Below, in pieces: positions 33,473-51,249 of a DNA stretch of 64,000 bases. Location of the stretch: positions 55,594 through 119,593 of IMG/VR virus record IMGVR_UViG_3300028797_000121. One strand, given 5' to 3'. Origin of the DNA: a virus. Lineage: Duplodnaviria; Caudoviricetes. A program made the position numbers and the translations under genes. The stretch's first letter is position 1; each line of letters begins with the position of its first letter. The notes beneath the pieces are model-generated. The model was not told the DNA's origin, searched no databases, and saw only the letters and a program-made list of their open reading frames with translations.

Positions 33473-34018
33473 TTACTCTATGGCAAGAGTAATATTATTT
33501 TCTTTTAAAATTTTGGCTAATTTTGTTGCATCTCCGCTTTTTTCCGCAACAGCATAGGCATCCGCAAGTTCATTTCCAATTTCATTATTATGACCCGCAA
33601 TTTTATATACGCCATAGTTGGGGAAATCTACTTTTGTATATTCATATATTTTTTTAACTAAATCTAAGTTTTTAACTTCTTCTTTTGAACTATTTATCCA
33701 ATTATTTTTAGCTCAACTGTATATTCAAGTATTAAACATATTAACGACATAAGCGCTGTCGCTATATATTAATACATCACAATCTTGATATTTTGTAGTG
33801 GCTAATTCTAATGCTTGTATTAGACCTTTTAATTCCATACGATTGTTTGTTGTTTCTTTCTTTTGCATAAGGTGTCCATCCATATAGGTCTCTTCTCCGC
33901 CTGTATAAGCATCGTATATAGTATTAGTTTCTGCGTCATATCTTACACAACTTCAACCGCCGATACCAGGATTGTTATTACAAGCTCCGTCAGTGTATAA
34001 ACGAATAATTTTTCTCAT
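33473..34018 (-). CDS. rnhA: Ribonuclease HI (181 aa); code 4
   Basis: YTDGACNNNPGIGG*, TTNNRMEL, SDSAYV, *IYS*AKNNW, GH...NELAD. TGA at 33953, 33725, 33713. Absent from ORF track. Confidence 0.95.
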
Positions 34019-39713: not shown

Positions 39714-39787
39714 GCGGATGTAGTTTAATGGTAGAATTACAGCCTTCCAAGCTGTTTGTAGGGGTTCAATTCCCCTTATCCGCTCCA
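39714..39787 (+). tRNA. tRNA-Gly(TCC)
   Basis: Cloverleaf, U73, CCA. Confidence 0.95.
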
Positions 39788-39795
39788 ATTTGTTT

Positions 39796-40021
39796 AAAAA
39801 TGGCACGCTATTCTAGTTATAAGGCAAATTATTGCTAAGGAAAACTTCTAGAGCGATATTTATTAAGTTTGAAGTGTGTACTAAGTGGTAATCAAGTCAT
39901 ATGCAGGGTAACCGCATATCGAGATTTTAAAACGAAAGTGCAATTTTGGTAACGAAGTGTAATCTTTGGAGAAACTCAACTTGACCTAAGACATAGGATT
40001 ACTTAATAGATTGCCATTTTT
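39796..40021 (+). ncRNA. Putative structured ncRNA (about 225 nt)
   Basis: Closing stem AAAAATGGCA/TGCCATTTTT and inner helices. Confidence 0.5.
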
Positions 40022-42288: not shown

Positions 42289-42702
42289 ATGAGATTATGG
42301 CATACAAAACTAATTAAAGCATTACCAAAAATACATCTTGTGGCTCAATGGCGAGAAGTTTCTGCTATTGCGGGAGCTATTCAAAAGAATGGGACACCAA
42401 ATCATGTATTAGTAAACTTTGTTTTAGATTATGATTATGATAATTTAATTTCATATGCATATTATTTAAGAGAGGAAATGAAAAATAGGGGTATTAGAAC
42501 TATGGATTCAGTATGGCAAAAGATTGTAAGTTTAAAACCTGATTATACATTATTACCTCTTGAAGATGTGTATAAAGATAAAATGAATGATTTATACTTA
42601 AAAATATGTTATTATAATTTATATGAAAAATATTTATGTGGTATGTTTGATGAAATCGAACCTATTAACAAGGTTTGTAAAGATATACTAGAGTTGGTGT
42701 AA
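42289..42702 (+). CDS. Pyrimidine-dimer DNA glycosylase/endonuclease V-like protein
   Basis: MRLWH...LP..HLVAQWRE...EEM..RG. Confidence 0.7.
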   Translation: MRLWHTKLIKALPKIHLVAQWREVSAIAGAIQKNGTPNHVLVNFVLDYDYDNLISYAYYLREEMKNRGIRTMDSVWQKIVSLKPDYTLLPLEDVYKDKMNDLYLKICYYNLYEKYLCGMFDEIEPINKVCKDILELV

Positions 42703-42761
42703 TGATAGCACGTTAGTTTGTGGCACTGAAGGCGAGGGTTTGATCCCCTCACTCTGGTCCA
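42688..42761 (+). tRNA. tRNA-His(GTG), atypical acceptor end
   Basis: TTAGT-TT GTG GC-ACTGA; U73 then CCA; overlaps the upstream ORF end. Confidence 0.8.
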
Positions 42762-42776
42762 TTAAAGGAGATTATT

Positions 42777-43139
42777 ATGGAATTAAAGAAAATAGAAGAT
42801 TATGAATTAGAAGAATTAGGTAAAAAAAGATTACTTATTAATAAATATGGTATGGATTTATTATATACATATGAAGTAAATAGGTATTGGAAAGAATTCT
42901 TTTTTGATGTAATTGATAAATTAGCTCAAAAGAGTGGTTTTATTATTAGACAAGATGAAAAATCTTTATTTGATGATTTAAAAAAAGATTATTATAATCT
43001 TATTGAAAGAAATAATTTAAACATTGATATTAACGATTATGTAGAAATAAATGATTATATTACATTTGAAGAGTGGTTAAAAGATGAAAACCATGACTAT
43101 GTAATTGTTAAAGATGGCATATATTTATTAGTTAAATAG
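42777..43139 (+). CDS. Hypothetical protein
   Basis: AGGAG RBS. Confidence 0.7.
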   Translation: MELKKIEDYELEELGKKRLLINKYGMDLLYTYEVNRYWKEFFFDVIDKLAQKSGFIIRQDEKSLFDDLKKDYYNLIERNNLNIDINDYVEINDYITFEEWLKDENHDYVIVKDGIYLLVK

Positions 43140-43233
43140 GGGCTTAGTGTAATGGTAGCACAACGGTCTTCAAAACCGTAAAGACGGGTCTCCAAAACCC
43201 GGGGTGTGGGTTCGAATCCTACAGCCTCTGCCA
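43138..43233 (+). tRNA. tRNA-Trp-like gene with two tandem anticodon arms (UCA then CCA); candidate UGA decoder
   Basis: Acceptor AGGGGCT/AGCCTCT, G73, CCA; arm 1 ACGGT-CT TCA AA-ACCGT; arm 2 CGGGT-CT CCA AA-ACCCG; normal D and T arms. Confidence 0.85.
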
Positions 43234-43358
43234 TATGAATTTAAGGTTAATTGGAAATAGTTATTAATGTGAAGCAGCCATATGGTGATTGCACGAAACT
43301 GAACCGCATCCGACGGGGAATTGATAGCTGAAGTATGATATAACTAGCCTTATTAAAT

Positions 43359-43432
43359 AGGGATATCGTTCAATGGTAGGACTGCGGTCTCCAAAACCGC
43401 GTATCTGGGTTCAAGTCCTAGTGTCCCTGCCA
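43359..43432 (+). tRNA. tRNA-Trp(CCA)
   Basis: GCGGT-CT CCA AA-ACCGC, G73, CCA, 74 nt. Confidence 0.95.
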
Positions 43433-43456
43433 AAATTTAAAAAGGAGAGGAATAAA

Positions 43457-43714
43457 ATGGCTAAAAGAAAGAAAGGTAAATCTGGTAGTGGAGAATCTCA
43501 ATATCTTATTACGCAATTAAATTTAGATAGAAAAGGTAAAACTAATAAGAAATTAAAGAGAAATCCTATGGCTCAAAAGAATTTAACAGCCAGAGGAAGA
43601 GAGCTAAAAGAGGCTGCCGCAGAGTATGTAAAATTACACCCTCCAGGTAGCGGAAAGAAAAGACAAGCAAAAATGAACCAAATAGAACAAAGAGTAGCAC
43701 AAGCAAATAATTAA
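43457..43714 (+). CDS. Small basic protein (RKGKTNKKLK family)
   Basis: RBS before ATG 43457; motif shared with 63815..63961. Confidence 0.7.
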   Translation: MAKRKKGKSGSGESQYLITQLNLDRKGKTNKKLKRNPMAQKNLTARGRELKEAAAEYVKLHPPGSGKKRQAKMNQIEQRVAQANN

Positions 43715-43730
43715 TTAATAGGAGGATATT

Positions 43731-44042
43731 ATGTTATTTAAAAGTAAAAAGCAAAAAATTAAAGAAGAATGTTATGATGTAAGTTACTCTTTCATAGAGT
43801 GGTTGAATACAAGATTAAAAGTATTTAGAGAAGACGCAAGTCAAACTATTGATTTAAAATTTCATAAATTTGAGTATAAGGAACAAGAATATGATTTAGG
43901 AACATTACTTAATTTAATGATTGATATAAGTGATGGATTACTTTATGAACAACATTATTATGATTACTCAAAAGATGTTGATGAAAAAGTTGATATGTTA
44001 TTAGATATTTTTAAACTAACTTTTCACTACCTATGGTGGTAA
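43731..44042 (+). CDS. Hypothetical protein
   Basis: AGGAGG RBS; ends LWW. Confidence 0.7.
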   Translation: MLFKSKKQKIKEECYDVSYSFIEWLNTRLKVFREDASQTIDLKFHKFEYKEQEYDLGTLLNLMIDISDGLLYEQHYYDYSKDVDEKVDMLLDIFKLTFHYLWW

Positions 44043-44055
44043 AAAGTTTTTTTAT

Positions 44056-44141
44056 GGGTAATCGGCGAAGATGGCGAGTCGCGGCAGACTGTAAATCTGT
44101 TACCTTAGGTTGAGGTGGTTCGAATCCACTGTTACCCACCA
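44056..44141 (+). tRNA. tRNA-Tyr(GTA)
   Basis: Class II cloverleaf, CCA. Confidence 0.93.
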
Positions 44142-44142
44142 T

Positions 44143-44218
44143 GGCACTGTAGCTCAGTCGGTAGAGCAAGGGACTGAAAATCCCTGTGTCGGTGGTTCGA
44201 TTCCACCCGGTGCCACCA
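44143..44218 (+). tRNA. tRNA-Phe(GAA)
   Basis: Cloverleaf, CCA. Confidence 0.95.
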
Positions 44219-44874: not shown

Positions 44875-44951
44875 GCCCTCTTAGCTCAGTAGGATAGAGC
44901 AACGCCCTTCTAAGGCGTGTGTCCGGGGTTCGAATCCCTGAGGGGGCGCCA
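44875..44951 (+). tRNA. tRNA-Arg(TCT)
   Basis: Cloverleaf, CCA. Confidence 0.95.
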
Positions 44952-46911: not shown

Positions 46912-47329
46912 GGGGATGTTTCTGGTTTCGACAGGAGCAAGCGAACCATCACAATACAAGTCGTAGTTATGCGTTAAATAACACATAAAAATTAAATGGA
47001 AACATTTTATCAAAAATTACTAATAAAGTTAAATCTTTATTCGCATCTAATTGCGTAGCCTTTGCGTAAGACTAAGTAGCTTTTATATGAAGTATCAGCA
47101 GCGGACAGAGAAAAATATAATCGTATTAACTAACAAAGACCGCCATTAAGGTGTCAGCTATCTATGCCAGCCGCACTTAATGTTTACTTTTAGCATAGAC
47201 TTACTCTTGAGATTTGCATATGGTAAAGAGTATAGATAGAACGGTATGCACAAAACTTGTAAGGTAAGAATGAGATTTGTGATTAGTAGTTGTTTTTGGA
47301 CACGGGTTCGAGTCCCGTCATCTCCACCA
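46912..47329 (+). ncRNA. ssrA: tmRNA
   Basis: GGGGATG...GGTTTCGAC 5' end, T arm and CATCTCCACCA 3' end, G3-U; tag ORF 46998-47069 GNILSKITNKVKSLFASNCVAFA*. Confidence 0.95.
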
Positions 47330-50043: not shown

Positions 50044-51249
50044 ATGATTAATCCAAAAACAAAGGAAAGAGAATTAGCATATATAGTTCAAATTGATGAC
50101 ATATTACCAATTGAGGGTTCTGATAACTGCGAATGTGCAGTTGTTGGCGGCTGGCATATAATGGTTAGAAAAAATACATATATTCCAGGCAGTATTGCAG
50201 TATATTTTGAAATTGATAGTAAATTACCAGAAACCGCAGAATGGGCGCAATTTCTAGCACCAAAACATTATAAAGTAAAAACTCAAAAATATACATTTGG
50301 GGGTAAGGGTAATTTCATATCTCAAGGTTTACTTGTTTCATTTGCGGACTTAGGTTGGGAAATGGACGAACATGAACTTGGAGATTTTGTTACAAAAGAA
50401 TTAGGCGTAGTTTATTCAGTGGCTGATGATAATAAAAGAAAAACAACTGTAAATAAATATGCAAGAATGAAACAAAGAAATGCTAAATTATTTGCAAAAT
50501 ATAACTTTTTAAATAAAATGTATAAAAATAACTTTGGTAAGAAAGTATTATTTTTATTCTTAGGTCGTAGAAGAGATGCTAAGGCGTCATTCTGGCCCGA
50601 TTGGGTAGTTAAAACAGATGAGGAACGTGTTCAAAATTTACCTCAGCTATTCCCGCCAGACAATACTACGTGGATTGTAACGGAAAAGATAGATGGAACT
50701 TCAACTACCTTTACCGTAAAAAGAAAAAATAGAAAAAAATATGAATATTATGTATGTTCAAGAAATGTATGTTTTGATAAAGCTGATAAACAATGTTTTT
50801 ATGAAACAAATGTTTATACAGAGATGGCAGAAAAATATAATGTGGAAGAAAAATTAGTTGATTTATTACAATCAAAAGATTTAGCTTTTGTAACTCTTCA
50901 AGGAGAAACTTACGGAAAAGGAATTCAAGAACGTGATTATCATATGGAAGATATTGATTTTATGGCATTTAATCTAATATTTGGATATAAAGACGGATCT
51001 ACTCAAAGATTTAACCCAATAGAAATGACACATATACTAGATCTTTATGATATACCTTGCGTTCCTATATTAAATATAGATTTTATTCTTCCAAATTCAA
51101 TTGATGAAATGGTTGCATATGCAGATGGAACTTCTGTTGTAGACGGCGACTATCGTGAAGGTGTTGTATTAAGAACATATGATGGAGTAAATTCATTTAA
51201 AGCAGTAAGCAACACGTATCTATTAAGTAAATTCGGAAATAATCAATAA
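50044..51249 (+). CDS. RNA ligase (Rnl2/DRB0094-like)
   Basis: N-terminal OB fold, KTDEER, TEKIDGTS, SRN, QGE, EGVV, FKAVS. Confidence 0.9.
   Translation: MINPKTKERELAYIVQIDDILPIEGSDNCECAVVGGWHIMVRKNTYIPGSIAVYFEIDSKLPETAEWAQFLAPKHYKVKTQKYTFGGKGNFISQGLLVSFADLGWEMDEHELGDFVTKELGVVYSVADDNKRKTTVNKYARMKQRNAKLFAKYNFLNKMYKNNFGKKVLFLFLGRRRDAKASFWPDWVVKTDEERVQNLPQLFPPDNTTWIVTEKIDGTSTTFTVKRKNRKKYEYYVCSRNVCFDKADKQCFYETNVYTEMAEKYNVEEKLVDLLQSKDLAFVTLQGETYGKGIQERDYHMEDIDFMAFNLIFGYKDGSTQRFNPIEMTHILDLYDIPCVPILNIDFILPNSIDEMVAYADGTSVVDGDYREGVVLRTYDGVNSFKAVSNTYLLSKFGNNQ

Follow-up and report, generated by a model that had tools for sequence, protein, structure and literature searches.

The two-armed tRNA of the window

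The DNA described here is a stretch of 64,000 nucleotides (nt), called the window throughout, from a virus of the Caudoviricetes (IMG/VR record IMGVR_UViG_3300028797_000121). The window covers record positions 55594-119593, and the record is estimated to be 80% complete. At 43138-43233 of the window lies the gene of a 96-nt opal-suppressor tRNA in which two arms, both built like an anticodon arm, stand one after the other, the first with the anticodon UCA and the second with CCA in its loop. The tRNA was recognised by direct reading of the sequence, by ARAGORN, by Rfam and by its minimum free energy (MFE) fold. It is on the plus strand, as are all features given below unless stated otherwise.

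Read directly, the tRNA has a 7-bp acceptor stem (43138-43144 with 43223-43229), paired as A1-U72, G2-C71, G3.U70, G4-C69, G5-C68, C6-G67 and U7-A66, a D arm (43147-43161) of a 4-bp stem and a 7-nt loop, then A26 at 43162, a T arm (43206-43222) of a 5-bp stem and the loop UUCGAAU, the discriminator G73 at 43230 and an encoded CCA end at 43231-43233. Arm 1 (43163-43179) follows directly upon A26, the canonical site, and is the true anticodon arm, with 5 bp and the loop CUUCAAA; ARAGORN agrees, with the anticodon UCA at 43170-43172. The 5' linker AAAGA (43180-43184), which includes positions 44-45, separates it from arm 2 (43185-43201), a hairpin of 5 bp with the loop CUCCAAA, its CCA at 43192-43194, in the position of the variable arm. 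We call this second arm the decoy hairpin, after the role proposed for it below; it is marked by covariation and by an invariant U-CCA. The 3' linker GGGU (43202-43205), which includes positions 46-48, completes a variable region of 26 nt holding the second (CCA) loop. An ordinary phage tRNA-Trp(CCA) of 74 nt, called by ARAGORN, is located 125 nt downstream at 43359-43432, and its loop CUCCAAA matches that of the decoy.

Both hairpins appear in the MFE fold. Their stems are perfect and are distinguished by two pairs, each changed on both sides. The first-pass annotation, made from the sequence alone, had described two tandem arms (UCA and CCA) as two 22-nt units with perfect stems and two compensatory swaps, and direct reading bears out its coordinates, units and pairings. 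It had added that removal of either unit gives a 74-nt tRNA like the neighbouring tRNA-Trp(CCA). This holds for the window copy, where deletion of either unit (each an A, an arm of 5 bp and 7-nt loop, and 4 nt) leaves a canonical 74-nt cloverleaf. The further statement that a 22-nt unit occurs twice is right for the structure but not for the sequence: the two units agree at only 13/22 positions, and a run of Tandem Repeats Finder over 43100-43280 reported no repeat. The two-arm repeat is a repeat of structure and not a recent tandem duplication. It is the relatives that show the design to exceed chance; the window copy alone does not establish this.

Membership in the tRNA family is clear from Rfam, where the tRNA model (RF00005) matches with 60.6 bits against a gathering score of 29 over the full model, 1-71. 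ARAGORN labels the 96 nt 'tRNA-SeC(tca)', taking the second hairpin as a long variable arm. The tRNA lacks the architecture of a bacterial tRNA-Sec (8-bp acceptor with 5-bp T stem, 6-bp D stem with 4-nt loop), and its arm lacks that of class II variable arms, which have 3-5-nt loops and 1-2-nt linkers, against a 7-nt loop and linkers of 5 and 4 nt in the window. Bacterial tryptophanyl-tRNA synthetase (TrpRS) recognises G73, the 1-72 pair and the CCA anticodon (PMC9976931). G73 and A1-U72 are present in the window tRNA, as is the Bacillus subtilis acceptor set G2-C71, G3-C70, G4-C69 and G5-C68, save for G3.U70 in the window copy; G3-C70 is found in relatives and in most rumen contigs (43227 T>C). 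The Trp identity nucleotides C34, C35 and A36 are absent from the anticodon, which is UCA, and CCA occurs only in the loop of the second hairpin. The tRNA is the sole UCA tRNA across the entire 119,593-bp record, so that an earlier claim of uniqueness within the window is confirmed and extended to the whole record.

Reality of the 96-nt form

The gene was checked in Logan contigs from three DNA runs of different studies and one metatranscriptome run; the stretch itself is present in bovine-gut runs from 11 studies. A 1,998-nt contig of an independent study covers 42700-44176 without a gap, and further contigs from DNA and RNA libraries cover 43137-43233. No indel or 22-nt joint within the tRNA gene was seen in any DNA or RNA contig examined. 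The idea that two single-arm alleles had been joined by the assembler, raised in the first-pass annotation as a possible undoing of its own description, fails here, as independent contigs bridge the 96-nt form. Metatranscriptome contigs also cover the gene, with DNA carry-over possible, and these contigs are uninformative on transcript ends or on a 74-nt species.

Variants among the contigs preserve the stems. The change 43143 C>T occurs together with 43224 G>A (pair 6-67), 43227 T>C makes G3.U70 a G-C pair, and 43163 A>G turns A27-U43 into G.U. The summed contig depth on the tRNA is several-fold above that of its flanks, and therefore many related phages in the same samples share this tRNA.

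TGA as a tryptophan codon

With TAA as the sole stop, large genes in the left 57 kb of the record hold up to 51 in-frame TGA each and few TGG, while TAG is never internal in these genes and is an ordinary stop in this phage. Open reading frames (ORFs) called with code 4 contain 273 TGA against 72 TGG in the left 57 kb, and 18 TGA against 158 TGG in the right part. The TGA share of Trp codons is 79% in the left 57 kb, which encodes large tail-fibre-like and repeat proteins, and 10% in the right part, which holds replication, nucleotide metabolism and the tRNA array. Some repeat proteins carry one TGA per ~26 codons. Within the window, 15 ORFs of at least 90 aa carry in-frame TGA and need read-through, in agreement with an earlier count of at least 15 genes that need UGA as Trp.

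The pfam and phrogs matches of the big recoded genes were too weak to ask which amino acid TGA stands for, and two client genes of the window, both on the minus strand, were used in their place. The RNase HI gene (33473-34018) has 3 in-frame TGA at conserved Trp positions in an alignment to solved RNase HI. Two of the three align with the Trp pair of the WIHGW type, and opposite the third stands Trp in the structure 3h08 and Tyr in others. The family-2 glycosyltransferase gene (578-1795) has 11 in-frame TGA and no TGG. Nine of the 11 fall in alignment columns with W as the majority or leading residue, bacterial homologues included, over a background W frequency of 1.6%, and Ser or Gly is never favoured at TGA columns. 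On the evidence of these alignments, TGA encodes Trp in this phage genome. The tRNA with the UCA anticodon therefore stands in a genome with in-frame TGA at Trp positions, as befits an opal suppressor. Searches of the record, at its 80% completeness, found no gene of the TrpRS/TyrRS family PF00579 and no release factor gene PF00472.

A family of tRNAs with the proposed decoy arm

Two scans of IMG/VR were made for relatives. The first, an exact pattern requiring both loops, returned 21 loci, 17 of which are the same tRNA with differing second stems. The second asked only for a UCA arm and a T arm, with a gap of 5-35 nt of any sequence, and brought up three kinds of tRNA: tRNA(UCA) of ordinary length, genuine Sec-type tRNAs, and many whose long variable region is a hairpin with the loop N-U-CCA-A-N. 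In total, the design was found at 51 IMG/VR loci, representing 41 distinct sequences. The first-pass annotation had named related phages as the place to look for the same double arm and for covariation, and both are found, since the second stem covaries across these sequences. Among the 41, G73 is present in all, and the 1-72 pair is A-U in 34, G.U in 5 and G-C in 2.

The association of the loop with the suppressor is strong. Among tRNA(UCA) with a long variable region, UCCA is present in 39/40 with a 7-bp acceptor against 0/13 of the Sec type with an 8-bp acceptor (Fisher 2e-11). For covariation, 34 distinct arms anchored on CCA were used; they were picked by the UCCA motif, so that the identity of U33, C34, C35 and A36 in 34/34 reflects this selection, and the unselected 39/40 count is the independent evidence. 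A37 is found in 31 of the 34. Over the five stem pairs of the decoy helix, 92.4% of cells are paired against 54.9% in shuffles, and double-sided changes occur at all five pairs. The covariation score is 0.98 against 0.25 when shuffled, none of 500 shuffles reaches it, and slid controls remain at or below 0.26.

The arm also has a geometry of its own. Compared with the variable arms of 51 Ser/Leu/Tyr tRNAs of the same loci, and with Sec arms there, the decoy has a loop of 7 nt in 30/39, where theirs have 3-5 nt, and linkers of 4-5 and 3-4 nt, where theirs measure 1-2 nt. The design sits on several tRNA bodies, with a Trp-like D arm, with long Sec-like D stems or with a class II-like D arm, which argues for selection on the loop and not for shared descent alone. 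The earlier suggestion of a frozen intermediate in the birth of a UGA-Trp tRNA is rejected, for the arm has been preserved by compensatory changes in 41 distinct sequences, which span several tRNA bodies.

A scan of bacterial genome contigs for the design gave mostly genuine 8/5 tRNA-Sec with UCCAAA in the loop of the variable arm (L265-L292), from Caulobacterales and five other lineages. Their number is about that expected by chance among thousands of tRNA-Sec genes, a caution against naming every UCCA loop a decoy. Only four decoy-type tRNAs were found on bacterial genome contigs, all on short contigs of metagenome-assembled genomes.

A glutamine counterpart in amber suppressors

A similar arrangement exists in tRNAs that read UAG. 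Several long tRNA(CUA) in the supplementary table of a 2025 preprint (bioRxiv 10.1101/2025.10.30.685624) have a hairpin in the variable region with the anticodon loop of tRNA-Gln. An IMG/VR pattern of a CUA arm, CU(C/U)UGAA and a T arm returned 57 loci (L109-L165), all of them tRNA(CUA) with a small hairpin and the loop CU-CUG-AA or CU-UUG-AA. These Gln-type decoys have covarying stems of 2-4 bp and long linkers. A second scan, free of bias towards the loop, sought tRNA(CUA) with a long variable region of any kind (L166-L263); its new loci comprise 11 with the Gln loop, 1 in which UCCA falls by chance within a Ser-like stem, and 5 that have neither. The loop triplet tracks the suppressor type (41:1 vs 1:11, p=1.5e-9). 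A class defined by a variable-region hairpin, a loop of U, cognate sense anticodon and A, and a covarying stem accordingly takes in the window tRNA and both the Trp and the Gln types. Glutaminyl-tRNA synthetase (GlnRS) depends on the anticodon of its tRNA. TrpRS likewise depends on the anticodon (PMC9976931). In phages whose hosts use the standard code, stop codons have been seen reassigned to two amino acids, Trp and Gln (Borges et al., bioRxiv 10.1101/2021.08.26.457843).

Activity of two-armed tRNAs in published data

The same preprint screened 213 phage suppressor tRNAs in Escherichia coli cell-free reactions, with results tabulated as relative fluorescence units (RFU) under RFU_TAG, RFU_TAA and RFU_TGA. 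We identified 13 tRNA(UCA) of the decoy design in its supplementary table, and in E. coli extract all 13 brought the UGA reporter to 26.7k-58.9k RFU, between 5.4k for the reaction without any tRNA and 69.1k for wild-type sfGFP. Only 2/18 tRNA(UCA) of ordinary length exceeded 25k RFU, against 13/13 of the decoy type (Fisher 5e-7, Mann-Whitney 1e-5). One of the 13, tRNAUCA-6, is identical to the window copy save for 2 stem positions, those corresponding to 43163 and 43227, and gave 53.6k RFU against the 5.4k background. Another of the 13, tRNAUCA-10, comes from the curated 'Agate' phage of Borges et al. The tRNAs of AP1 and HF2, phages with their own TrpRS, have no decoy and are inactive without that enzyme.

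According to the text of the preprint, intact-mass mass spectrometry (MS) found Trp as the residue inserted by all 13 tRNA(UCA) analysed. Only 15 tRNA(UCA) are strongly active, and therefore most of the 13 analysed by MS must be of the decoy design. These data show that tRNAs of the decoy design are charged by a standard bacterial TrpRS and read UGA. The preprint makes no mention of a variable arm, a hairpin or an extra arm.

Proposed mechanism and its alternatives

We consider it fairly probable that the UCA arm decodes UGA and that the CCA hairpin is a decoy in cis which satisfies the TrpRS of the host. In such a mechanism, the first hairpin, in its canonical place after A26, would read UGA as Trp, mainly in the heavily recoded late and structural half of the genome. 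The second hairpin would occupy the site of the class II variable arm, be built like an anticodon arm and show the U-CCA-A of a normal tRNA-Trp. The acceptor identity elements (G73 and the acceptor pairs) would stay in place for host TrpRS, and the tethered loop could supply the lost CCA in cis by filling the anticodon-binding site of the enzyme. Decoding (UCA) would thereby be uncoupled from identity (CCA). As one option for docking, the purine-rich linkers may let the hairpin lie alongside the real anticodon arm; as the other, the two arms may exchange stacking. The first-pass annotation had listed, among its models, recruitment of TrpRS by the CCA arm with decoding by the UCA arm. Its decoding half, UGA read as Trp by the UCA tRNA, is indirectly supported by the activity of tRNAUCA-6 and by the MS result, and the model is the best-fitting one because TGA encodes Trp by the alignments, no TrpRS gene was found, U-CCA-A is invariant on a covarying stem, the Gln type offers a parallel, and near-identical tRNAs suppress UGA. 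For its other half, we infer from the same evidence that the decoy loop is what TrpRS binds, and likewise the manner of docking. A general design for stop-reassigning phages, in which the real anticodon reads the stop and a tethered hairpin shows the sense anticodon (CCA for TrpRS, CUG or UUG for GlnRS), is in our judgement a little on the probable side.

The distribution of synthetase genes has the expected direction. PF00579 is found in 0/32 IMG/VR records with a decoy-type tRNA(UCA), 12 of these at least 90% complete, and in 3/18 records with an ordinary tRNA(UCA), a weak difference (p=0.04). Several points weigh against the decoy mechanism. The activity data of the preprint come from intact tRNAs, and they speak for the whole molecule, not for the share of the arm in charging. 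UCA-12 and UCA-18, of ordinary length, are also active in E. coli extract, and therefore the decoy is not strictly needed for E. coli TrpRS. The inactive tRNAs of ordinary length may be poor predictions or lack the Trp acceptor elements, which confounds the comparison of 13/13 with 2/18. A loop in the variable arm is normally far from the anticodon position on a synthetase, so that a linker swing-down or an arm swap is needed. The folded stem of the decoy ranges from 4 to 8 bp among relatives, and the window record is only 80% complete, so that a TrpRS gene could sit in the missing part. Lastly, one relative, L071 (2905-3002, plus strand of its locus), shares the Trp-like body and the UCA arm, but its variable region of 28 nt holds no CCA hairpin.

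Among the alternatives, a role of the hairpin for another partner, such as ribosomal efficiency against release factor 2, stability, processing or a modification enzyme specific for the anticodon loop of tRNA-Trp, with charging through G73 and the acceptor stem alone, is rather unlikely. The activity of plain UCA-12 and UCA-18 does show that E. coli TrpRS can charge some plain tRNA(UCA), and Borges et al. (bioRxiv 10.1101/2021.08.26.457843) refer to UGA suppressors that are charged with Trp in E. coli; but plain tRNA(UCA) are mostly inactive without a phage TrpRS, Trp and Gln are the two identities known for their strong dependence on the anticodon (PMC9976931), and a structural or ribosomal role leaves the cognate triplet unexplained, CCA on UGA readers and CUG or UUG on UAG readers. 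A two-state swap, in which either hairpin may stack under the D stem, CCA stacked giving a normal tRNA-Trp with a bulged hairpin and UCA stacked giving the UGA reader, we hold to be unlikely. It draws on the canonical 74-nt cloverleaf left when either unit of the window copy is removed, and on the conserved core of the second helix, whose 5 bp and 7-nt loop are the geometry of an anticodon arm. However, the decoy stem of many relatives is either 4 bp long, under a loop of 8-9 nt, or folds to 6-8 bp, and Gln-type stems have only 2-4 bp. Such arms cannot replace an anticodon arm, and the short Gln-type stems and variable Trp-type stem lengths therefore speak against a full arm swap as a general rule. 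The swap, an unlikely variant of the same handle idea with a different docking, could also allow some reading of UGG, which is not needed because a normal tRNA-Trp(CCA) lies just downstream. Switching of specificity by alternative folding or by excision and ligation had been a further model of the first-pass annotation. The excision and ligation part has no support, as the contigs of DNA and RNA contain no 22-nt joint, and in many relatives removal of either hairpin leaves no normal tRNA; the part concerning alternative stacking of the arms is still in play, at the same low probability as the swap.

A class II tRNA of the Ser or Sec type, whose long arm would recruit seryl-tRNA synthetase (SerRS) so that UGA means Ser, or Sec or Cys after conversion, is highly improbable. 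The ARAGORN label, the long variable region and a G73 shared with tRNA-Ser and tRNA-Sec are in its favour, against which stand the 7/5 acceptor and T stems with a 4-bp D stem in place of the bacterial Sec 8/5 with a 6-bp D stem, an arm whose 7-nt loop and long linkers set it apart from the Ser, Leu and Sec arms at those loci, the alignment of TGA with Trp and never with Ser, and the Trp found by MS in the preprint. An accident, be it two alleles fused during assembly or a duplication that is recent, neutral and heading for decay, has a next to negligible probability. L071, which has no CCA hairpin, could be cited for it, but the same 96-nt form recurs in independent assemblies from several studies, 41 distinct sequences show compensatory changes, and the two units are so little alike (13/22) that the arm must be old and maintained. 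No other of the roughly 50 loci departs from the design in this manner, and the L071 copy may have decayed or may be put to a different use.

Relation to known systems

The tRNA-Trp(UCA) of mycoplasmas and mitochondria (code 4) has Trp identity, reads UGA and is often found beside a tRNA-Trp(CCA) gene. It has an ordinary 5-nt variable loop and is charged by a co-evolved TrpRS, whereas in the phage tRNA the variable region is 26 nt long and bears a second loop with CCA, and charging must rely on an enzyme foreign to the phage, that of the host. The phages of the 'Agate' clade (~127 kb; Borges et al., bioRxiv 10.1101/2021.08.26.457843) resemble the present one: they are cattle-gut phages of about 120-135 kb and low GC with a single tRNA(UCA), TGA is reassigned to Trp mainly in structural genes, and the replication genes remain on the standard code. 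Borges et al. leave tRNA structure undiscussed (the word 'anticodon' is absent from their text), do not describe the decoy arm, and propose only that host TrpRS may be 'intrinsically susceptible'.

Class II tRNAs, tRNA-Sec and allo-tRNAs (Mukai et al., PMC5389517) also have a helical arm between positions 45 and 46, and UCA or CUA anticodons occur among allo-tRNAs and tRNA-Sec. In allo-tRNAs and class II tRNAs, the arm recruits SerRS through its length and orientation, with the loop sequence free; the loop of the phage decoy, in contrast, is invariant and equals a sense anticodon. Mukai et al. do not mention Trp. Mimics of anticodon arms in mRNA, such as the E. coli thrS operator and yeast AspRS mRNA, demonstrate that an isolated hairpin with the cognate loop suffices for the anticodon-binding domain of a synthetase, and that a swap of the triplet changes which synthetase binds (PMC9976931). 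These mRNA mimics are regulatory and never aminoacylated, whereas the phage mimic is part of a functioning tRNA. Work on engineered tRNAs whose variable arm is a hairpin or an aptamer (PMC7590224) is reported to show that translation tolerates a foreign hairpin at this site; those tRNAs are artificial and built on allo-tRNA.

No published description of the decoy arm was found in the full-text literature, subscription journals being outside its coverage. The arm is undescribed in Borges et al., in Mukai et al., in reviews of tRNA structure and identity, in the theta-ribozyme paper, in the zeta-crAss paper and in the 2025 preprint.

Significance

Recoded phages need stop-reading tRNAs that are charged by a host enzyme which itself reads the anticodon, and on this point Borges et al. 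go no further than to suppose the host TrpRS and GlnRS 'susceptible'. If the decoy mechanism is true, it would explain how hosts with the standard code come to translate phage genes of code 4 and code 15 when the phage brings no synthetase. The decoy loop in cis would be a new kind of tRNA identity element, one that splits reading from recognition, and it would offer a ready design rule for suppressor tRNAs in genetic-code expansion. The mechanism also predicts that changing the three loop bases would lower charging, and that swapping CCA for CUG would change the amino acid. Thirteen decoy-type tRNAs and an experimental platform are already contained in a published data set, whose authors appear to have left the arm unnoticed (10.1101/2025.10.30.685624).

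For annotation, ARAGORN calls such genes tRNA-SeC or 'undetermined', and length filters may discard them. Such mis-annotation may partly explain why a suppressor tRNA is seen in only about a third of code 4 phages.

Other features of the tRNA array

The RNA ligase that the first-pass annotation had credited to the phage is encoded in the cluster of the suppressor tRNA, about 7 kb further downstream: an Rnl2-type enzyme at 50044-51249, with PF09414 and the OB domain of PHA02142. Its function is probably tRNA repair, and nothing links the ligase to the suppressor tRNA. An ARAGORN call of 'tRNA-Pyl(cta)' at 44875-44951 brought up a second, amber recoding, which was set aside: the fold, with a 5-bp stem and the loop CUUCUAA, gives tRNA-Arg(UCU), the only Arg tRNA in an array of 24 genes, and TAG is an ordinary stop. 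A strong Rfam match to OLE RNA lies at 39741-40012, scoring 100 bits (gathering score 50, E 8.5e-26) and covering only positions 281-595 of the 616-position model. Its start falls within or beside a tRNA-Gly (39714-39787). It is unusual to find an OLE-like domain among phage tRNA genes, and its presence hints that the host is a Firmicute. The tRNA array further contains a full-length transfer-messenger RNA at 46912-47329 (Rfam 90 bits, model 1-374).

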